Shown piece after piece: positions 14,287-58,828 of a DNA stretch of 64,000 bases. Position numbers and translations under genes: made by a program. This DNA comes from Promethearchaeota archaeon. Its GTDB lineage: Archaea > Asgardarchaeota > Lokiarchaeia > Sigyniarchaeales > SOKP01. The stretch spans positions 288,001 through 352,000 of the forward strand of contig JAHPZE010000001.1 of the NCBI GenBank assembly GCA_019058365.1, read 5' to 3'. The notes under the pieces are model-generated. The model made no database searches and was not told where the DNA came from. It worked only from the letters and a program-made list of their open reading frames with translations. Numbering within the stretch: the stretch's first letter is position 1; every line of letters begins with the position of its first letter.

Positions 14287-16917
14287 TTAAATTCTAATAA
14301 TAATGTAAAAAAAGTAGTAATATCCAAAATAATACAATGGAAGTGCGCCAAATAGAGTACCTATGAAATGAGTAAAAACAGCGGGATATATATTATTTTT
14401 CATAGAGAATAAATAAGTTAAGAAAAAATTTACTACACAAATATAGAAAAAGGTTGTAATTAAAATACTACTGACAGTATTAAGAACTGTAGATAAAGTT
14501 ATAAAATAGATAAAGTAATATAGAAAGAAAATACCACTATTTAAGAATAGAGACAATAATCTATTATATTTTGTAAGGAGGACTGAAAAGATGATTCCAC
14601 GAAATAAAAGTTCATTCCATAAAGCAAAAACAAAGCTTACAAATATTTTATAAACATCAGGAGGGATATTCTCATTAAAAGAGGTGATTGTTGGAAAGAC
14701 AAAAGTATAGAAATAGTGAAATAACAAAATGAACAAAATTCCAAAGATCCCTAACTTACAGATTTTTAATTTATTATTTCGTATATCTGATGTATCATAA
14801 GTAAGTCCTTTGAGATTAGGAACAAAATTTATTTTTATGAAATATAAAAATAACGTAGGAAATATGATATACCATAAGATAATTCGAAATTGATTGAATT
14901 CTCCCAGATTATATACATTGGATATACAATAACTTAGAATATTTAAGTAAAGATTTCCTAAAGAAACTAAAAAAAAATTCAGTATTAATAGTAAAGTAAT
15001 TGAACTCCATGGATACATAATAAAAAATTTGTATTTAGTACTTAATTGGTATATCTCTTTATCCAAAGATAAGTTATGTACCTTTTTCTCTTTAGATTTT
15101 CGAGTAGGAGAAAAGATGATTCTCTGAGTGTTGTCTGGAATTATTTGGTATACCTCTCTATCAAAAGATAATTTTAGAATCTTTTTATTTTTAGGTTTTC
15201 GAGTAAGTGAAAAGATAGTTTTAAAAAAAATTAATAGAATGAAATAGCAACCCAACATAACTAAAGTATAAATTGAAATGAAATGTAGCATTCCCCAATA
15301 GTTCAAGATCGTCCCCATTGATATAATTAAAATGGTTAGAATGTATTCTAAAATGTAAATACGAGCCCATTTACTCATTTTATATTCAAAGTTAACTGGT
15401 TCAAGAACGAATCGATATTTTGCTCTTCCAAAAAAGCATATTCGCATTTCAAACATTGAAATAAGAATAAACCATGCAAATGGCAATGAAACTAAAACAG
15501 TCAGAAGTAAAGCTATAAAATTTGGTTCAAACATATAAACAAGGTAAGGAGATATGACAGAAATTGTTTGAATTATTATGAAATACAAAAGTTTTGATTT
15601 AGCTTGATTTTTAGGTATTATTGGTAGTGATGAAAAGATAGGATCTCCACTTTCTTCTAAATTCATTAAGTTATATAATAACATACCACAAATAATAGGT
15701 TGAAAAGCCAAAATTACTGACCAAGTATAAATAAACTCTGTATTTAAGAGAGATTGCCCTTGTAACACTGTGAAATTAAATGTAAAAGTAAACACGAATG
15801 AAATGATAACCGGTGTTATAGCTGATAAGAAAATTTTGAGATTCCTAAAGGTTATTGAAAGATCCTTAATAAAGTGCGCGTAGGTGGGCTTTCTTATTTT
15901 AATGTTAATTTGAAGATGTTCTTGTATTAAATGCGAATTTTTATTTTTCTTTTGAATTTCATCACCTGAAAGGGTTATTTTCTTTAACCCTGATATTGCT
16001 TTAGTAAAAATCCAATAAGTAAATATTATAAATAGCCCCAAACCACATAAAACCCCTATCCAAAAATGGAAATTAAATTGAATGGGGATAGTGAGAAAAA
16101 CGATTAAATAACTTGATGATTGAAATGGAATAGTTGCAAGAATCAGATTTAAAATAGCAGAACTCTTTTGAACCAATGGAGATGTAAAAAAAGAATTCAT
16201 GGACGTTATTGCCCACTGCACAAAAATTAGGCTTCCAAAAAAAATTATAACAAAACCGAATATATTTATCAATCGTAGTATTGTTGTTTTTCTTGAATTT
16301 GCGTCGTTTATATCTATGATTCTATTTATTCGTTCTCCAAAAATTGTTAAAATAATAAAGGTAGTTGTACTTTGGAGCATTGAAATCCCTAAACAGATCA
16401 AAAAAATTATAAAATTCAAGGTTCCAATGAACATTGCTATTGGGAAACCAAGGGTTATCACTATTAATGGGAGATCAAAAGTTCGAAAAACACTAATAAT
16501 TTTTAATTTTTGTAATTCATTAGTAGAAATTGGTAAGGTTTTTAGCCAAGAGAATAGGCTATTTGACATAATTAAACCTGCTTCTATCATACCCATCAAA
16601 AAAACATTAAAAAATTGTAAAATAAAAAAAAATAAAAATAATAAACTACCACCAAGTACTGCTATTTCAATAGAATATCCATGAGTGATAACTCCATTTA
16701 TCATCTCAAAATATGTCATAAGTGGGATTGCAGGGAGAATTCCAAAAAAAACAGAATAGAATATTTTAGTAATTAGGATCTTTGCTTTTAGCAGGTTCTT
16801 CTTTTTATTATACTTTTTTAAAAGGTTTTCTGTGTTAGCACGTAATAATTCTTCTACAAAAATCTCTTGGTTCACAGATTTTGCTATTTTTATTAGATTT
16901 AACCTATCTTTTGACAT
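14287..16917 (-). CDS. ABC-2-permease-like membrane protein fused to a degenerate CPBP (CAAX protease) domain
   Basis: WLKTLPIS and FSSLPIIPK..AKSK permease repeats; C-terminal WNELLFRG...NIYPAVFTH. Confidence 0.65.
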   Translation of the reverse strand: MSKDRLNLIKIAKSVNQEIFVEELLRANTENLLKKYNKKKNLLKAKILITKIFYSVFFGILPAIPLMTYFEMINGVITHGYSIEIAVLGGSLLFLFFFILQFFNVFLMGMIEAGLIMSNSLFSWLKTLPISTNELQKLKIISVFRTFDLPLIVITLGFPIAMFIGTLNFIIFLICLGISMLQSTTTFIILTIFGERINRIIDINDANSRKTTILRLINIFGFVIIFFGSLIFVQWAITSMNSFFTSPLVQKSSAILNLILATIPFQSSSYLIVFLTIPIQFNFHFWIGVLCGLGLFIIFTYWIFTKAISGLKKITLSGDEIQKKNKNSHLIQEHLQINIKIRKPTYAHFIKDLSITFRNLKIFLSAITPVIISFVFTFTFNFTVLQGQSLLNTEFIYTWSVILAFQPIICGMLLYNLMNLEESGDPIFSSLPIIPKNQAKSKLLYFIIIQTISVISPYLVYMFEPNFIALLLTVLVSLPFAWFILISMFEMRICFFGRAKYRFVLEPVNFEYKMSKWARIYILEYILTILIISMGTILNYWGMLHFISIYTLVMLGCYFILLIFFKTIFSLTRKPKNKKILKLSFDREVYQIIPDNTQRIIFSPTRKSKEKKVHNLSLDKEIYQLSTKYKFFIMYPWSSITLLLILNFFLVSLGNLYLNILSYCISNVYNLGEFNQFRIILWYIIFPTLFLYFIKINFVPNLKGLTYDTSDIRNNKLKICKLGIFGILFILLFHYFYTFVFPTITSFNENIPPDVYKIFVSFVFALWNELLFRGIIFSVLLTKYNRLLSLFLNSGIFFLYYFIYFITLSTVLNTVSSILITTFFYICVVNFFLTYLFSMKNNIYPAVFTHFIGTLFGALPLYYFGYYYFFYIIIRI

Positions 16918-50557: not shown

Positions 50558-51619
50558 CTATGCTTCTGGAATTAAAATATTAAATTTGCTTCCTTGAGAA
50601 AAATCTCCGGATATTTTGTCTTCAACCCAGATTTTTCCATTATATTTTGCTATTATTTTATTAACAATTGATAAACCAAAACCCATTCCTTTAGAATATT
50701 TATCTTTATTTAATTTTCTCTTAAATATAATTTCTTTCCTTTCATCGGGTATTCCAATACCATTATCAATAATTTCAATTTTTATATAATTTATTCCATT
50801 ACTAATCTTCCTTGAAATATTTACATTAATTTCCACATTAGGATTATCATTATATTTTACACTATTAATTATTATATTCTCAAACATATCTAATAAGAGC
50901 TCATTCGCTATTACCCATATCTTTTTATCTGGAGTATCTATTGAGATTGATAATTCTCTATCAAGTATACTTCTTTGAAGAAATGTAATTGCCTCTTCAA
51001 GAATTCTATTTACATCTACATTTTCTAAATACATTTCAGAATCCTCTAAATTCGCAAGCTGTTGTGCATTTGAAACTAGCCTCATGCCTCTAAAACCTTG
51101 ATCTCTTATTATATCTATTAACATATCCAAGTCCTTCGCATTTTTACCATTTTTTCTATATAATGAGTAGAGTTCTGTTGCTGATTTAATATGCTGAATT
51201 ATATTGTTAATATCATGAGTCAGAAGGTCTCTATAAAAGATTAAATCCTCGTATGCTTTATTTAGTTCTTCAGTCTTGGAGATTTCTTCGCTTAAAAAGC
51301 TTATTATAATACCTATAATTATAAGAAATAATGCACGGAGGAGGTTATCTATGTTATATAAAGTTAATATATCCATTCCAAATAAAAAAGGAAAGAAAAT
51401 CAGTGAAATTGCTAGAAATATAGGAACAATTAAACCTTTTTTTTTCCACCAAAGACATGCTAGAATTGTTGGAATATAAAAGAAATGTGAAAAAACTACA
51501 TTAGTATTATGAATTACCTGAAACAAATAATTTAGGAGAGACGAAATAATTAAGAAAAAAGTTAGAATAACCAATTTTAATTTATTTAAATATTTTTCAA
51601 ACTGTGTTTTTATAATCAT
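50558..51619 (-). CDS. Membrane sensor histidine kinase (DUF4118-like TM region)
   Basis: HFFYIPTILACLWW TM bundle; HDINN; N-box; DNGIG; GMGFGL. Confidence 0.9.
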   Translation of the reverse strand: MIIKTQFEKYLNKLKLVILTFFLIISSLLNYLFQVIHNTNVVFSHFFYIPTILACLWWKKKGLIVPIFLAISLIFFPFLFGMDILTLYNIDNLLRALFLIIIGIIISFLSEEISKTEELNKAYEDLIFYRDLLTHDINNIIQHIKSATELYSLYRKNGKNAKDLDMLIDIIRDQGFRGMRLVSNAQQLANLEDSEMYLENVDVNRILEEAITFLQRSILDRELSISIDTPDKKIWVIANELLLDMFENIIINSVKYNDNPNVEINVNISRKISNGINYIKIEIIDNGIGIPDERKEIIFKRKLNKDKYSKGMGFGLSIVNKIIAKYNGKIWVEDKISGDFSQGSKFNILIPEA

Positions 51620-51718: not shown

Positions 51719-53032
51719 TTAATGCGTTGCACATGATATGCAAGGATCAAAGGCTCTAATTATCCTCTGAACACTATTTTTCACTAAATTAATATCTCCT
51801 GTTCTTTCAAATAATACTTTTGCATAATTCGTAATCATTTCATTTATTAGTGGAATATTAAACTCAGTTGCTACAAATAATTTTATACGATCAATAGAAT
51901 TATGATTATTTACATAATAATGATGTAAAAGTGTCCCTCTGGGGGCCTCAATAACACCGATCCCATCAATTTTTTTTACGGAGTTCAGAGAGGAGATTTC
52001 TTGTTTAACAGTTAAATTATGATCATCTAAAATTTGTATACTCTGGACACTTTCTATATACATTTCTAATAATCTAATAAAATTAGCAAATAGAATATTA
52101 TTTTTCCATGGTTTATCAAAATATTCTAGATAAGTCTGAATTTCATCTGTACCATAATTCTCGTTAATATTGTATCTGGTTAAAGGTCCTACTATAACAT
52201 TTTTTTTATTATCAAAGTAAAAGTCTATTCCACGTAATTCAGGCTCCTTTCCAAAATAGGAAGAATAATTCTGCTTTTCAAATTCTATCATATTTCTATT
52301 AGTTTCTTTCAATGATAACCTACCTGAATATCGATTATAATTTCTTAAATTCGAGAGACCGAGATAAATGAGATTTGGAGCATCGAATTCTTTAGGTGGT
52401 AATTGATGAGAAAATAATTCAATAAATTTTTCAATGATCCATTCCAAACTGATTAAAGCATTTTGAAATCTTTTTTTAGCTATTGATATATCCTTTTTGG
52501 AAGGAGAGTAAATAATTCCTCCAGGAATAAGTGAAATTAAATGAATTGATCTACCCCCAAACAAATTATTAATTTCATTTCCAATTTTAATTAGTTCATA
52601 TATATTTGAAGTTATTTGAGGGTCGTAATTAATTAAATCATAAGCAGTTGTAGTTTTCTGACTAATATTAAAAATATTTAATAGATCTGGTAATGTTTGG
52701 AAAAAGAAACTCATAGAATGTGATTTGATTAATTCTCCAGTCATTAAAATGCGCCTTAAGAGTTTTGCTTGTTCTGAAACCTTAATATTATATATATCCT
52801 CAATTGCTTTACAACTCGCGATTGCTTGAGAAGCATAACATAATCCACATATCCTAGGAACTATTTTTGGAATATCTAATAATTTCTTTCCAATTAAGAA
52901 ATTTTCAAAACCTCTATAAATTTTAAATTCAAAATTTACTAACGAAATTTCATCATTTTGAACTAAAATTTTTATTTCCCCATGCCCTTCAACACGTTTA
53001 CAAACATCAATGACTTTTAACATTTTTTTCAC
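51719..53032 (-). CDS. mvhA: Group 3 [NiFe]-hydrogenase large subunit (MvhA-like), lacking the C-terminal extension
   Basis: RVEGHG, RGFE, PRICGLCYASQ, EAPRGTLLHHY, RAFDPCISCATH-stop. Confidence 0.9.
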   Translation of the reverse strand: MKKMLKVIDVCKRVEGHGEIKILVQNDEISLVNFEFKIYRGFENFLIGKKLLDIPKIVPRICGLCYASQAIASCKAIEDIYNIKVSEQAKLLRRILMTGELIKSHSMSFFFQTLPDLLNIFNISQKTTTAYDLINYDPQITSNIYELIKIGNEINNLFGGRSIHLISLIPGGIIYSPSKKDISIAKKRFQNALISLEWIIEKFIELFSHQLPPKEFDAPNLIYLGLSNLRNYNRYSGRLSLKETNRNMIEFEKQNYSSYFGKEPELRGIDFYFDNKKNVIVGPLTRYNINENYGTDEIQTYLEYFDKPWKNNILFANFIRLLEMYIESVQSIQILDDHNLTVKQEISSLNSVKKIDGIGVIEAPRGTLLHHYYVNNHNSIDRIKLFVATEFNIPLINEMITNYAKVLFERTGDINLVKNSVQRIIRAFDPCISCATH

Positions 53033-53787
53033 CCTTCCAATTTTGGTTTCGAGAATCGGTAAAAAATACCAGTGTAGTTTTTGAGTTCTTCAGATAAATT
53101 TATTAAACTCAAATAGTTAACAAGGTTAGAAGTAAAATCTTTTGATACTGGTCCTATACATCCTTCACAGGGAAGTCCCATCTTAATACACATATGTTCA
53201 CACCCATCTCGTATAATAGGTCCTAAACATAAAATACCCTTTGCTAAAAAACATTCAGAGTTTTCCTCATCAAGTTTAATCTCTTCTGGATTTGGTGTAA
53301 TTTTTGAGATATTTATATTTGAATTTATTTCCATGTTCCCTCTTAATGGGCAACTACCACACATATTTTTTTCAGAGAGTTCTATTTCTTTATTTTCAAC
53401 CAATCTAATTAGACAATTACCAAAAAGTTTCATAGGTGGTGGACAACCTGGAATGATACCATCAATTTCAATATATCTTGAAATTGGTTCTGTCATTTTT
53501 ATATCTGATAGGCTTAAAATTCCTCCAAAACAAGCACAAGTTCCTAATGCATATATTTTTTTAGCTTGTTTTCGGATTTTTCGAAGGATAGGTATTTGAT
53601 CATCTTCAGAAACACATCCTTCAATTAAACAAACATCACAATCTTCAATATCCATTACATCGGAAATAAATTGAAAGTAAATTACTTTAGTACGTTCAAG
53701 GAATTGTGGAAAAATATCTAACGATATAAGAGAAGAGATGCATCCACTACAAGATGTTAAAGATATTATTGCAAATTTACGTTTCAA
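53029..53787 (-). CDS. mvhG: [NiFe]-hydrogenase small subunit (MvhG-like)
   Basis: SCSGC, GTCACFGG, PGCPP, CGSCP, CLGP..GC..C..PCEGC; TTG start at 53787 after GGAGG; GTGA overlap with mvhA. Confidence 0.88.
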   Translation of the reverse strand: MKRKFAIISLTSCSGCISSLISLDIFPQFLERTKVIYFQFISDVMDIEDCDVCLIEGCVSEDDQIPILRKIRKQAKKIYALGTCACFGGILSLSDIKMTEPISRYIEIDGIIPGCPPPMKLFGNCLIRLVENKEIELSEKNMCGSCPLRGNMEINSNINISKITPNPEEIKLDEENSECFLAKGILCLGPIIRDGCEHMCIKMGLPCEGCIGPVSKDFTSNLVNYLSLINLSEELKNYTGIFYRFSKPKLEG

Positions 53788-56326
53788 ATTTAACCTCCTC
53801 CAATAATTTATTATAAAATTTATTAGCAACCTCAGCAAACTTGTTCCCTTCAACAGCATTCAAATGTTTAAGAATTATTCGCTCACGGTATTTTGTCGGG
53901 ATAATATTTTTTAATATCAATATTTTTTTTTCTACTTTCTCTACTCCATCAATATATCGACACGCATTTTTTCTACAACCAATTATCATCACTCCATCAA
54001 AACCTAACTCAAACGATTTAATTATGAAATTCGTATCTATGCGACCAGTGCAAGGAACACTTAAAATAAAGATATTTGGATTATATGAGATCTTCTTAAG
54101 ACCCGCATCATCTGCAGCAGCATAACCACAAGAACGACAACAAAAGGCAATAATTTTAGGTTGTTTTCTAAATTTCGAAAAAATTTCAATTGATTTTAAA
54201 ATCTTCTCAGAATTATCTATGTTTAAATCTATCGCATTAGTGGGACAAATACTAGCGCATGTACCACATCCCTTACATTTAAATTTATCTATATTTACTT
54301 TTTCTGATTCTATTGTAATTGCATTGTAAGGACAAATTTTAGAACACAATCCACATAAGCCACACTTGTTATCATCGATTTCGATTCCACTAAACTCCGC
54401 TATCAAATAATCATTAGAGAGTAATGAAATGATTTTAATCGCTGTATTATTAGCTGTTGAAATCGTAGAATTATAATCTAATGGACCAAATATAGTTCCA
54501 ACCCCATATATTCCAGATGCTAATGTCTCTTCACTCATAAAACCATAATCATCTAATGTAAAATCCATTGTTTTTCGAAATGCTTTTAAGTCTTTATTTG
54601 GTACTAAAGTTTGATTTAACACTATTAAGTCACTTGGATATTCTTTTGAATCGACTTTTACTATCTTTTGATCGTTTTTTTCAACAATTTTTACTTTATT
54701 AGAATAATGTATCCTAGAATCCATGGATCTTAGTGTAAAGTCGTCTGCTTTTTTTATCTTACTTAAATCGTAAAAAATATTGACTTTACAATCAGGATTT
54801 TTTACTTCAACATAATTTAAATATTTTAAAGCAAGGATATCTTGAAGTTTATGTTGATGATCAGGGTGTCCAGCATATTGAATAATCGAAATCGTCTTTG
54901 GAGGCGTTTTATCAGAAATTTTTACTATTTTACCTTCTGTGAAGCCATCAGAAGATAACATTCTTTCAAACTCCGATGATGTAATGATATCATTTTGTGG
55001 GTTATAACAATATTCATCTAAATCTGTAAAAAGATCAGAACCGATAGCTATAACTTTAGTACCTACCTTAATTTCAATTTTTTCTGGTTTTTGTGTCAAA
55101 TCTATTGCTTTATTAACGCATGCACGTTCACAAATTCTGCAATTAAGACAATTCTTAATATCTGATTCATCAATTAAAGGAACATAGGGAAAAGAATGAA
55201 TAAATGGGATATAAATAATTTTTCTATTATTTAATCCAAATTCATATTGATTTTGTTTTTCAATACTGCATACTTTTATGCATTGTTTACAACCAGTACA
55301 TTTCTTTGTATCTACATATCGCGGTTTTTTAATCAAATTAAGAGTAAAATTTCCGACTTCTCCTGAAACACTTTCTATTTCAGTATTAGTAAGTACTTTT
55401 ACATTTTTTTCATTCACCAACTCACCTATTAATTCTGAAATGAAGCATATAGAACAATCGCCCATATTATGTATTCGATCCCATCGGGCTACTTTACCTC
55501 CCAAAGTTGGTGATTTCTCAATAACATATACTTTTATTCCAGCTCGAGCTAAGTTTAATGCAAGTGTTATACCCGCTATTCCACCTCCTAAAATTGCAGC
55601 ACTTTTTTCAATTTCAACTCTCTTAATTTTTACTTTTTTTTGAAGACTAACGCGTTCAACTGCTGCTTCAATTAATAATTTTGCCTTTTCTAATGAAAGA
55701 GAGGGATCGATTTGATTAATTTCGAATTGATGTACCCAACAACATTGTTCTCTAATATTTGCTATTTCTATATTCACATGTTCAATGACACCATCAAAAA
55801 TTCGCTTAAAAAGATGCTGATGAGTTTTTGGAGAGCAAGCAGCTATTACAATCTTGTTTAAAAAGTTATCTTTTACCCAATGTGTAATTTTATCAAAATT
55901 TTTTTGCTGGCATAAATTTTCGAAGATTTTTACAGATACAACCTTTCTTAACTTATTTACATATTTTTCAAGAGCAGTTATATTAATTACATTTGAAATT
56001 TCTGTATTGCAATTGCAAATTATTACTCCAATTCGGCTTATTTCACTTCCCTGAGAATCTAAGTATTCATCAATATTTTCTCCTGATAAAATTCTTTTGT
56101 TGAGATTTAGTATTTTTAATATACGTTTACCATCTTCCGTAAGAAAATATGATTTTTTATCTTTATTGATTAATGTACCAATTTTTTTGAGATGGAAATT
56201 TAACTGTCCTGTAGTATCTAAACCCAATTTTTCCATTAAATCTGTATAGGGAATATAACCCTCTTTTTCTAAAAGGAGTAAGATCTTTCTTCTAAACGGA
56301 TGAGATAATATAGAATATATATCCAT
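53777..56326 (-). CDS. Winged-helix (ArsR-like) / HdrA / MvhD fusion protein
   Basis: LSHPFRRKILLLL..YTDLMEKLGL.TGQLNFHLKK..YFLTEDG; RIGVIICNC, NIREQCCWVH, GGGIAG, two ferredoxin pairs; C-terminal AFCCRSCGY..PCTGR..GC..ACRY. Confidence 0.9.
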   Translation of the reverse strand: MDIYSILSHPFRRKILLLLEKEGYIPYTDLMEKLGLDTTGQLNFHLKKIGTLINKDKKSYFLTEDGKRILKILNLNKRILSGENIDEYLDSQGSEISRIGVIICNCNTEISNVINITALEKYVNKLRKVVSVKIFENLCQQKNFDKITHWVKDNFLNKIVIAACSPKTHQHLFKRIFDGVIEHVNIEIANIREQCCWVHQFEINQIDPSLSLEKAKLLIEAAVERVSLQKKVKIKRVEIEKSAAILGGGIAGITLALNLARAGIKVYVIEKSPTLGGKVARWDRIHNMGDCSICFISELIGELVNEKNVKVLTNTEIESVSGEVGNFTLNLIKKPRYVDTKKCTGCKQCIKVCSIEKQNQYEFGLNNRKIIYIPFIHSFPYVPLIDESDIKNCLNCRICERACVNKAIDLTQKPEKIEIKVGTKVIAIGSDLFTDLDEYCYNPQNDIITSSEFERMLSSDGFTEGKIVKISDKTPPKTISIIQYAGHPDHQHKLQDILALKYLNYVEVKNPDCKVNIFYDLSKIKKADDFTLRSMDSRIHYSNKVKIVEKNDQKIVKVDSKEYPSDLIVLNQTLVPNKDLKAFRKTMDFTLDDYGFMSEETLASGIYGVGTIFGPLDYNSTISTANNTAIKIISLLSNDYLIAEFSGIEIDDNKCGLCGLCSKICPYNAITIESEKVNIDKFKCKGCGTCASICPTNAIDLNIDNSEKILKSIEIFSKFRKQPKIIAFCCRSCGYAAADDAGLKKISYNPNIFILSVPCTGRIDTNFIIKSFELGFDGVMIIGCRKNACRYIDGVEKVEKKILILKNIIPTKYRERIILKHLNAVEGNKFAEVANKFYNKLLEEVKFET

Positions 56327-56412: not shown

Positions 56413-56588
56413 TGATAAACAAAATGATCTCTATGATAAATATCATTGTCAGAGTATATAAATATGATCCTTTTCCCATTTATAGTATTTGAAAGTAGTC
56501 AAATAAGTGTTAGAAAGATCATAGTTTTTATCATAAAAGCGATAGATCCTCTATAAGAAAATAATTATACGAAGATCAGATTCGTATA
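56413..56588. promoter_or_regulatory. Divergent promoter region with several inverted repeats
   Basis: TGATAAA-N5-TGATC at 56413 and inverted at 56517-56533; ATGATA-AA-TATCAT at 56433; TATACGAA-N7-TTCGTATA at 56566-56588. Confidence 0.5.
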
Positions 56589-56791: not shown

Positions 56792-58828
56792 ATGTCTGAG
56801 ATACAGACCATGGTGAGAATTGGAGTATATATCTGTAGATGAGGAGTTAATATCAGTACTTCTATCGACTGTGATCTTATTAGAGATTATGTTGAGGCCC
56901 TCCCAAACGTTATTGTTGCTAAAGTAAATGATTTTACTTGTAGCGATCCAGGACAAAAAATTATCAAAAACGATATTTTAGATTTAGACTTAAATCGAGT
57001 GGTTGTTGCAGCTTGTACACCTAAAATTCACGAATCCACCTATCGATTAGTTTTAGTTGAAGCAGGATTAAACCCATATTACTTCCAAATGGTTAATCTT
57101 CGTGAGCATTGTTCATTTACTCACTCGGGAAATAAGAGAAAAACTACTGAAAAAGCTATAAGGTTAGTGCAAGCAGGGATAAATCGTGCTAGAGAATTAG
57201 AGATAGTACCTTATAAAAAATTATCAGTAGAGAAATCGGTATTAATTATCGGTGCGGGTATTGCGGGAATGAATGCAGCATTAGATTTAGCAAATCAAGG
57301 AATAAATGTATATTTAGTCGAAAAAGAAGCTACAATTGGAGGTAAAATGGTACAATTAGATCGAATTTATCCCACAGACGATTGTGCTATATGAGTTCTA
57401 GCACCTATTATGGTTAGTACTTCAAAACATCCAAATATAACCTTATTTACTTGTAGTGAAATCATAAAATTTAGTGGCAACACTGGAAACTATAATGTTA
57501 TAATACACAAAAAAGCCCGGTATGTTAATGAAAGTAAATGCACGGGTTGTGGATTATGTACTACAAAATGTCCAATAAAGGTACCTAACGAATTTGATAG
57601 AGGTATGGGTGAACGAAGCGCAATTTACATACCTTTTCCCCAAGCAGTACCTAAGGTTGCTTTAATTGATAAGAGTGTTTGTATAGATTGCAAAAGTTGT
57701 GAAAAAATTTGTCCCGCAGAAGCTATTGACTTAGATCAAACCTCAGAATATATAGATTTAAAAGTTGGTGCAGTCATTATTGCAACGGGATGGGATGAAT
57801 ATCCAATTATGAAAAATAACGAATATAAATATGGTATTTATCTTGATGTTATTACTCAAATAGAATTGGAACGAATGTTAAGTCCAGTTGGACCAACTGG
57901 GGGTCATGTATGTAGAATTTCTGATGGAAAAATCCCAAAAACAGTCGCGATGATTCAATGCGTGGGTTCAAGATCCTTAAACGGGAATCCCTATTGCTCA
58001 GGAGTATGTTGTAATGTTGCACTTAAAAACGCTCAATTGTTAAAACATGAATATCCTGATATGGAAATTGTTATTTTTTATATAGATATGCGGACATGGG
58101 ATAAAGGAAATGAGGAATATTATAGAAAAGCGAGAGAAGCGGGGATAATGATGATTCGAGGAAAAGTAGGAGATGTAAGACAAGATCCCAACTTAAAAAA
58201 AATAAAAGTTACAGCTTCTTCAACTTTAACAAATGATTTTATTACAATGGATACCGATTTAGTTGTATTATCTACGGGAATGGTCCCCTCTAAAAAAACA
58301 ACACAAATCGTTGAGACTTTAGGAATTGCTAAAGATATAAATGGGTTTTTAACTGAAGTTCATGGATGCCTGAAACCTCAAGAGACAAATAATTTGGGTA
58401 TATATATATGTGGCTGTGCTGCTGGACCTAAAAATATCCCTTATTCCGTGTCAACTGCATTAGCTGCTGCAAGTAAAGCATCTACTTTACTCTGTAAAGA
58501 TACAATAACTCAAGAATTAATCATCGCTGAAGTAAATGAAAATTTATGTATGGGTTGCCATAGATGTGAAAAACTTTGTAATTATAATGCAATAAAAGTT
58601 AATAGAGAGAATATAGCTATAGTAGATGATTTAAAATGTAAAGGGTGCGGAGTTTGTGTATCATCATGCCCCGCTAGAGCAATTGATCTTAAATACTATA
58701 GAGATAAGCAAATTAGTGAAGAGATAAGAGGGATCTGTAGTACTGAACTTGAATATAAGGAAGAATATATTGAATCTATTGATCTTATTTGGAAAAAGAT
58801 TGAAGCATTAGCTCCTTATCAAACATAA
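56792..58828 (+). CDS. hdrA: Heterodisulfide reductase subunit A, selenoprotein with two Sec (U17, U201), 678 aa
   Basis: AGGTGA RBS then ATG 56792; TGA at 56840 in RIGVYICRUGVNI and TGA at 57392 in TDDCAIUVLAP, both at conserved Cys positions; joins ORFs 56999 and 57410 in one frame. Confidence 0.92.

Follow-up and report, generated by a model that had tools for sequence, protein, structure and literature searches.

A hydrogenase operon with an atypical large subunit

The stretch of DNA analyzed here (hereafter, the window; 64,000 nucleotides (nt), positions 288,001 to 352,000 of contig JAHPZE010000001.1, assembly GCA_019058365.1) belongs to a Lokiarchaeial genome assigned to Promethearchaeota archaeon, order Sigyniarchaeales. 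The minus strand of the window carries a compact operon of three genes that encode a fusion of a winged helix-turn-helix (wHTH) domain with HdrA and MvhD, an MvhG-like small subunit and, at the end of the operon, an MvhA-like large subunit of a [NiFe]-hydrogenase (Table 1). An earlier, sequence-only reading of this DNA pointed to two features of the large subunit, namely, Gln in place of the His of the L1 motif and the lack of a C-terminal tail, and attributed them to convergence with bacterial sensory hydrogenases. Here we examine the distribution and history of these features along with the partners of the protein, and tentatively conclude that the operon encodes a catalytic hydrogenase that would also regulate its own expression.

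Translation bears out the observations behind that reading: the open reading frame (ORF) is present as called, but on the minus strand; the motif RICGLCYASQ contains Gln, which is residue 69 when counted from the GTG start; and the protein ends at DPCISCATH immediately followed by a stop codon, TAA, given that the plus strand reads TTA at 51719-51721, so that no cleavable tail is encoded. Most homologues consist of 434 amino acids (aa) and begin at the Met that is residue 4 of the called ORF, and this is probably the true length of the protein. The MvhA-like protein matches NiFeSe_Hases (PF00374; 2.3e-29) and shows 29-34% identity to the group 3 large subunits of solved structure. In the three solved relatives aligned with phmmer, the bifurcating NiFe enzyme of Acetomicrobium (7t2r_D, RICGICPVSH), MvhA (5odc_F, RICGICQVAH) and HoxH (5xf9_D, RLCGICPVSH), the position of Gln69 is occupied by His, and two of the three, 7t2r_D and 5odc_F, extend 25 residues past the final His. 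The L1 His is held to be conserved in every [NiFe]-hydrogenase except the H2 sensors (PMC5665086).

The rest of the active site is preserved. Across an alignment of 19 sequences with identities down to 30%, the invariant residues are R13, E15, G16, C62, C65, P364-R365-G366, H370, D429-P430-C431, C434 and H437. These include both CxxC pairs that bind Ni and Fe (Cys62/65 in L1 and Cys431/434 in L2), the proton-relay Glu15 in L0 and the canopy Arg365 of the PRG motif. Thus, to judge from the alignment, the [NiFe] ligands, the proton-relay Glu and the canopy Arg of the MvhA-like subunit are intact.

Table 1. Genes and sequence features of the Gln-type hydrogenase locus and of the second hydrogenase of the same genome
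Feature	Position	Strand	Description
Membrane histidine kinase	50558-51619	minus	99 nt downstream of mvhA; weak DUF4118-like transmembrane domain, H-box, HATPase_c
mvhA-like gene	51719-53032	minus	[NiFe]-hydrogenase large subunit; 437 aa from GTG start
L2 motif	51719-51748	minus	DPCISCATH, then stop directly; no C-terminal maturation peptide
Gln112	52697-52699	minus	second gas-gate position, within FFFQTLPDL; aligned to HoxC Phe110 and Hyn Leu122
L1 motif	52826-52855	minus	RICGLCYASQ; Gln69 codon 52826-52828; Leu64 is the first gas-gate position
mvhG-like gene	53029-53859	minus	small subunit; PF01058; overlaps mvhA by 4 nt
wHTH-HdrA-MvhD fusion gene	53777-56326	minus	849 aa; first gene of the operon; ArsR-like wHTH 1-90, HdrA 95-715, MvhD 720-849
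Palindrome TGACAATGATATTTATCA (TGAYAA-N6-TTRTCA)	56434-56451		candidate operator; 108-125 nt upstream of the fusion-gene start
HdrA gene	56792-58828	plus	interrupted by in-frame stops; split by the ORF caller at 57394/57410, 5' part uncalled
VhuGAU-HdrCB set	G000:C16:91413-95746 (L127 11414-15747; L001 64-2900)		canonical; on the same contig as the window

Distribution of the Gln-type subunit

To assess how widespread the two features are, we collected the 120 best matches to the MvhA-like protein (53-92% identity), among which all those with a named source are labelled as Asgard metagenome-assembled genomes. Gln is present at the L1 position in all 117 sequences with a readable motif, and 119 of the 120 stop at the terminal His, the remaining one being a truncated fragment. 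Because both features recur across the close homologues, neither can be ascribed to chance or to a sequencing artefact. In a sample of 301 Asgard genomes, with the Gln type called at 46% identity or more, it was detected in 51 of the 69 genomes of the family to which the window itself belongs and in two neighbouring families, and was not found in the remaining families searched. In the genomes sampled, the Gln form is encountered in the taxonomic class to which the window belongs; the relatives are named Lokiarchaeia or Promethearchaeota at NCBI, and a His-type orthologue is present in Jordarchaeia.

Beyond the close homologues, among representatives of clusters formed at 50% identity, the two features come apart. 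More distant Gln-containing relatives (P0123, P0127, P0132 and P0134) keep tails of 5-11 residues, and one close relative, P0122, is tail-less with His at L1. Tail-less enzymes of the His type account for 14 of the approximately 105 full-length group 3 representatives and have arisen repeatedly. A separate clade of group 3 (P0163, P0167, P0218, P0227, P0233, P0235, P0253 and P0256) has Tyr at the L1 position (RICGICPVAY). Given the tail-less His enzymes and the Tyr variant elsewhere in group 3, neither trait is unique to sensors.

Other unusual C-termini were encountered in the same set. P0130, P0146, P0164, P0257 and P0259, which are outgroups of the Asgard lineage, have no terminal His at all and end 2-3 residues after the second Cys of L2 (DPCISCLGA, DPCIPCAAL), a different kind of C-terminal reduction. 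The large subunits P0247 and P0253 (583 and 602 aa) have long C-terminal extensions that resemble a fused maturation endopeptidase (GIGSPFGNDSLGWDV-type motif).

Comparison with the regulatory hydrogenase HoxC

The sequence-only reading likened the protein to HoxC, the large subunit of the group 2b H2-sensing hydrogenase, and the translation of the Cupriavidus necator pHG1 sequence agrees with what was said of that protein: its L1 motif is RVCGICSVSQ, with Gln67 corresponding to Gln69 here, and it ends at DPCMVCTVH-stop, so that both proteins have Gln at L1 and both lack the C-terminal extension. Two publications describe HoxC in the same way. The likeness does not extend to L0, where HoxC has the sensor-specific Asp15 (RVEGD), whereas in the lineage of the window the position is occupied by His in all 118 homologues compared. 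The gas gate, formed by Ile62 and Phe110 in HoxC and by Val74 and Leu122 in standard enzymes (PMC11023054), is modified in its own way. The first position, aligned to HoxC Ile62, is Leu64 in the window protein and Leu in 116 of 117 homologues; the second is Gln in 107 of 112 homologues and His in the other 5. Hence the gas gate is predicted to be altered, though differently from that of HoxC (Leu/Gln versus Ile/Phe).

Phylogeny and stepwise origin of the Gln-type lineage

Phylogenetic trees were built with FastTree for 152 sequences and with IQ-TREE for 48 sequences, the latter rooted on HoxG and HoxC. In both, the MvhA-like protein falls outside the Mvh/Vhu clade and groups with short-tailed and tail-less sequences (FastTree support 99; IQ-TREE Shimodaira-Hasegawa-like approximate likelihood ratio test support 91). 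The canonical group 3c representatives, which have tails of 22-28 residues, include the VhuA of the same genome. HoxC and HoxG together branch off outside group 3 as a whole, so the window protein is not a member of group 2. Within group 3, a single change to Gln suffices in the FastTree phylogeny; when HoxC is included, there are two changes, one in HoxC and the other inside the Asgard-specific group 3 lineage.

The tail-less Gln-containing core is a clade with a support of 99-100. Its successive outgroups are short-tailed Gln forms, P0122 and a pair of Jordarchaeial proteins with His and a 7-residue tail. The same steps can be followed within a single orthologous operon, from His with a 7-residue tail (L023), through Gln with a 5-residue tail (L022), to Gln without a tail in the core. 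Thus, on the evidence of the trees and alignments, Gln69, the loss of the tail and the Leu64/Gln112 gate are lineage-fixed derived traits that were gained stepwise and independently of the bacterial H2 sensors.

The proposal of convergence with HoxC in a group 3 scaffold is borne out by the two separate origins of Gln in the rooted tree. The designation of the two features as sensor traits fares less well: both are present and HoxC-like, but the functional conclusion drawn from them does not hold up, since they are fixed across an entire Lokiarchaeial lineage. By these comparisons, the likeness to HoxC is a trait of a lineage rather than of a single gene. The sequence-only reading had itself named a common occurrence of Gln and tail loss among ordinary catalytic Asgard group 3 hydrogenases as the outcome that would speak against it; with the L1 residue and the tail tabulated on the tree, the lineage-wide fixation goes far in that direction.

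The operon and its electron-transfer proteins

All 17 loci examined, the His-type one of Jordarchaeia among them, retain the unit wHTH-HdrA-MvhD / MvhG / MvhA, and the 4-nt overlap of mvhG and mvhA suggests that the products form a stoichiometric complex. The genes are closely packed. The mvhG-like ORF also shares 83 nt (53777-53859) with the end of the fusion gene, but its homologues are only 250-252 aa long, so that the true start probably lies about 25 codons downstream of 53859, at a TTG or another codon. In the alignment with 5odc_E, the MvhG-like protein retains the Cys motifs of the proximal, medial and distal clusters.

The fusion protein yields Pfam matches to DUF7347/HTH_24, Fer4 and FlpD; its HdrA part matches 8rvu_a (8e-112) and its MvhD part 5odc_D (2e-24). 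The HdrA part differs from canonical HdrA in that the four Cys of the cluster motif in the thioredoxin-reductase domain (CxGxRD...CSxxCC) are replaced, the sequence reading IQYAGHPDHQ...HKLQDILALK; we take the missing cluster to be the one that feeds HdrC in canonical Hdr. The rest of the electron chain is well conserved: Lys409 of the site for flavin adenine dinucleotide (FAD) is retained, and 31 Cys columns of HdrA-MvhD, those of both ferredoxin-type dicluster domains included, are kept in at least 13 of 14 orthologues. Accordingly, as far as can be judged from conserved residues, MvhD has its full Cys set, and HdrA retains the FAD-site Lys and four other clusters. HdrBC genes are absent from the three-gene operon. 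Because the Jordarchaeial orthologue combines His and a 7-residue tail with the same wHTH-HdrA-MvhD partner, the appearance of Gln and the loss of the tail were not tied to a change of partner. Taken together, the alignments, trees and gene context indicate that this group 3 lineage is a distinct Asgard sub-lineage in which the second coordination sphere is sensor-like and the partner is an HdrA-MvhD protein that is predicted to bind DNA.

The wHTH domain and a candidate operator

The wHTH domain is the best-conserved part of the fusion protein (61-96% identity, compared to 55-91% for the HdrA core), and its predicted recognition helix, TGQLNFHL, is invariant among 14 orthologues from Lokiarchaeia to Jordarchaeia. 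The best sequence match in the PDB is 1y0u (E 0.013). When the AlphaFold2 model of the domain (predicted local distance difference test score, pLDDT, 84) is compared with known folds, each of the 50 best matches is a transcription regulator of the ArsR, HxlR or MarR type, CadC, YodB, BigR and NolR included; the template modelling score for repressors of the ArsR/HxlR type is 0.6-0.78. A homodimer model attained a score of 0.46, compared to 0.00 for the best of 3 controls, with at least 84% of the contacts shared between runs and a partner pLDDT of at least 86. Of the proteins whose structures were solved as pairs of one chain, 20 of 30 attain this mark, compared to 1 of 23 of those solved as single chains; ArsR-type dimers are among the solved structures, and the pass may for that reason reflect only likeness to them.

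The intergenic region upstream of the fusion gene contains the palindrome TGACAATGATATTTATCA, located directly downstream of a TATA-like TTTATATA box, and equivalent promoter regions of 9 other loci contain the palindrome as well. The 420 nt preceding the fusion gene contain an exact copy in 6 of 14 loci and a copy with at most one mismatch in 10 of 14, compared to 0.002 and 0.26 loci, respectively, in shuffled sequences. The window contains two matches, with 0.11 expected; the second one (16686-16703) is intragenic and was set aside as a chance occurrence. Genome-wide (4.74 Mb), there are 6 sites, compared to 3 for a reversed-pattern control. At the vhu/hdrCB operon of the genome, the palindrome does not exceed the chance level (6 weak matches, 7.9 expected). 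Three further loci have it ahead of the first gene of the operon, which is FrhB-like there.

A second hydrogenase and maturation genes

The genome encodes a second, canonical hydrogenase, with a VhuG-like small subunit of 438 aa and a VhuA of 435 aa that has the L1 His and stops before L2; the L2 motif resides in a separate VhuU peptide that contains selenocysteine (DCULSCAAH) and has a C-terminal tail. HdrC-like and HdrB-like genes follow. The presence of HdrC and HdrB next to Vhu, and of neither in the Gln-type operon, matches the loss of the HdrA cluster. A gene for HypD is located about 5 kb upstream of the vhu set, and a HycI-like protease is encoded on another contig.

HycI-like endopeptidase genes are also present in three of the genomes in which the Gln-type subunit was the only one detected (G049:C9:106700-107014, G234:C37:3005-3283 and G294:C143:12485-12841; see below). 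Either these assemblies are missing the vhu region or the protease homologue serves another role.

Genes adjoining the operon

The gene downstream of mvhA encodes a membrane histidine kinase in which no PAS domain was matched in Pfam. An orthologue of this kinase adjoins mvhA in 8 of 30 genomes. In a relative that is 97% identical (L091 2811-3037), the kinase is missing and mvhA is followed by dsrE and treT, with the synteny otherwise the same, so the kinase is an insertion or deletion. A role as an obligate analogue of the kinase HoxJ was therefore rejected on these three grounds, namely, the adjacency in only 8 of 30 genomes, the lack of a PAS match and the absence from the 97% identical relative. 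In L014, L109 and L115, only the N-terminal membrane domain of the kinase has a homologue downstream of mvhA. The genomic context lends the protein a certain sensory flavour through the ArsR-like wHTH on the partner protein, the palindrome in the promoter and the kinase gene that follows mvhA in the window, the kinase being a facultative neighbour.

On the other side, the fusion operon is divergent from an HdrA gene of putative selenocysteine type, and the two share the operator-bearing intergenic region. The divergent neighbour varies: the selenocysteine-type HdrA is found here, and distant loci have two uncharacterized proteins and an MtdB-like dehydrogenase. In this divergent set of L013-L023 (for example, L018 3954-6379, minus strand), the two uncharacterized proteins are paralogues of approximately 205 and 243 aa that belong to no Pfam family and start with MEVLELKP or MPEVLELKP; they are followed by the MtdB-like methylene-tetrahydromethanopterin dehydrogenase (Mpt_N). 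The Jordarchaeial counterpart is a single protein that joins the 243-aa paralogue to the dehydrogenase.

Functional interpretation

The reading that we favour, with a confidence that stops somewhat short of even, is that the MvhA-like protein is the catalytic hydrogenase module of a self-regulating ("trigger-enzyme") complex consisting of wHTH-HdrA-MvhD, MvhG and MvhA. The MvhA-like subunit would turn over H2, and the electrons would pass through the small subunit to MvhD, then to FAD and finally to the ferredoxin-type domains; the intact catalytic residues and the conserved electron chain that ends in these domains argue for genuine H2 turnover. Given that HdrA lacks the cluster in the thioredoxin-reductase domain and the operon lacks HdrBC, the acceptor is unlikely to be a heterodisulfide reached via HdrBC. 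Nickel would be inserted without an endopeptidase step. The conserved wHTH and the conserved palindrome speak for an additional capacity of the complex to bind its own promoter DNA, and the N-terminal ArsR-like wHTH, as a dimer, could report the redox state of the flavoprotein to the TGAYAA-N6-TTRTCA site in its own and the divergent promoter. Because Gln, tail loss and the gate changes were gained stepwise in a lineage that already had the wHTH fusion, they more plausibly represent a tuning of the active site and of maturation; the Gln and the modified gate may adjust the redox states of the active site or the access of gas to it, rather than mark a switch to pure sensing.

Several observations weigh against this reading. 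Gln, the loss of the tail and a modified gate in combination match the low-turnover regulatory hydrogenase exactly. The Gln type resides together with a canonical Vhu in about 44 of the 51 genomes of the family that have it, as would be expected of a sensor. An argument from genomes in which the Gln type would be the sole hydrogenase had to be abandoned: searches with PF00374, PF00346 and PF02906 revealed only the Gln-type subunit in G049, G077, G234 and G294, but the first three assemblies are probably incomplete at vhu, since HypD, which is encoded next to vhu in the present genome, is missing from them too, and only G294 (82% complete) remains. Proteome data published for a cultured Asgard archaeon (Cell 2024), which concern its [NiFe] hydrogenase, were set aside because no link to the Gln-type lineage was established. 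The proposed binding of the wHTH at the palindrome is a prediction from their co-conservation.

Some of these points would be accommodated better if the complex were a dedicated one-component sensor of H2 (or redox state), in which a slow [NiFe] site serves solely, in the presence of H2, to reduce the FAD and Fe-S cofactors of wHTH-HdrA-MvhD and thereby switches its binding to the operator, so as to control the divergent genes, that is, the selenocysteine-type HdrA here and the MtdB-like operon elsewhere; such a device would be an archaeal one-component analogue of HoxBC-HoxJ-HoxA. The HoxC-like Gln, the missing tail, the change at both gas-gate positions, the lost HdrA cluster in an operon without HdrBC, the invariant recognition helix facing a palindrome that is conserved in a divergent intergenic region, the almost constant company of VhuGAU-HdrCB and the kinase found next to mvhA in 8 of 30 genomes are all in line with this possibility. 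We nevertheless consider it rather unlikely. Strong selection has kept both ferredoxin-type dicluster domains complete, along with the N-terminal cluster and MvhD, which points to throughput to an external acceptor; the palindrome was not found at vhu/hdrCB and, with only 6 sites in the genome, the regulon would comprise little more than the operon itself. The Jordarchaeial orthologue has the L1 His and a tail along with the same wHTH fusion, so there is no link between the Gln and tail loss and the regulatory domain. Asp15, which is specific to sensors, is missing, the kinase is dispensable, and the Gln of the regulatory hydrogenase itself is reported as one that "seems not to be involved in H2 sensing" (PMC5665086).

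At the opposite extreme, the protein could be an ordinary catalytic group 3 hydrogenase in which Gln, tail loss and the modified gate are neutral or mildly adaptive and the wHTH is a structural or dimerization module without a part in regulation. The intact catalytic and electron-transfer residues are compatible with this view, tail-less His enzymes have emerged repeatedly in group 3, and the Tyr-containing clade shows that the L1 His position is not immutable. What makes such an enzyme improbable is the wHTH: it is the most conserved segment of the fusion, with an invariant recognition helix and a fold that matches only DNA-binding repressors, and the promoter palindrome has been kept from Lokiarchaeia to Jordarchaeia far beyond chance expectation. 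Selenium offers yet another angle. In Methanococcus, Vhc and Frc replace Vhu and Fru when selenium is scarce, and the all-Cys operon could similarly stand in for the selenocysteine-containing VhuU and HdrA, with the wHTH and the operator mediating the switch. The genome indeed encodes a split VhuA/VhuU with DCULSCAAH, and the HdrA with in-frame stops is divergent from the Gln-type operon, itself free of such stops, across the operator-bearing region. We regard this as the most doubtful of the explanations: identity between the two large subunits is only about 30%, and they belong to different deep branches, unlike pairs of selenocysteine and Cys isoenzymes; the Gln-type HdrA, without one cluster and without HdrBC, cannot simply substitute for its counterpart; and the divergent neighbour in many loci is the MtdB-like operon and not the selenocysteine-type HdrA.

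Implications and relationship to known systems

The Gln lineage is a large exception within group 3 to the L1-His rule, with more than 100 sequences and a presence in most of the sampled genomes of one Asgard family. It amounts to a natural experiment on the roles of Gln, tail loss and the Leu/Gln gate in [NiFe] chemistry and maturation, in which the intermediates, His with a tail, Gln with a tail and Gln without one, are all extant. In our literature search, we found no mention of the L1 Gln, of tail loss or of a wHTH fusion for the hydrogenases of Asgard archaea, and the enzymes are called group 3c. Routine annotation as 'group 3c MvhA' has been used to infer the H2 metabolism of Lokiarchaeia, and such conclusions deserve caution because the subunit is atypical, the HdrA partner lacks one cluster and the operon lacks HdrBC. 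If transcription indeed responds to H2 or redox state through the fused wHTH, the archaea closest to eukaryotes would possess a regulatory device of a new type. Should the protein turn out to be a sensor instead, hydrogenase-based sensing of H2 would have evolved independently for a second time, in archaea that are central to the hydrogen-syntrophy models of eukaryogenesis.

Among the known systems, HoxBC/HupUV belong to phylogenetic group 2 and signal via an obligate PAS histidine kinase, whereas the window protein belongs to group 3 and any signal would pass via the fused wHTH flavoprotein. MvhA/VhuA of the methanogen MvhAGD-HdrABC complex (group 3c, 5ODC) shares with the window protein the fold, the ligands and the set of partners, that is, an MvhG-type subunit with three [4Fe-4S] sites, MvhD and HdrA. 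In comparison with MvhA/VhuA, the window protein has Gln for the L1 His, lacks the 25-residue tail, has the Leu/Gln gate, is about 30% identical and forms a separate deep branch; at the level of the complex, MvhD is fused here to a wHTH-bearing HdrA without the thioredoxin-reductase-domain cluster, and HdrBC is not part of the operon. A precedent for the proposed mode of regulation is the trigger enzyme PutA, a flavoenzyme that has a DNA-binding domain fused to it and acts as the repressor of its own divergent operon. The analogy consists in the N-terminal position of the DNA-binding domain on a flavoprotein and in the candidate operator within its own divergent promoter region; neither the proteins nor their folds are related, the DNA-binding domain being ribbon-helix-helix in PutA and an ArsR-like wHTH here, and the redox input in the present case would be H2 via the [NiFe] site. 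In domain architecture, the fusion protein resembles the HdrA2-type (type Ia) HdrA-MvhD fusions of Methanosarcina, which likewise have MvhD at the C-terminus of HdrA (PMC12054007), but it differs from them in the addition of the N-terminal wHTH, in the loss of one cluster and in being encoded together with a hydrogenase instead of HdrB2C2.

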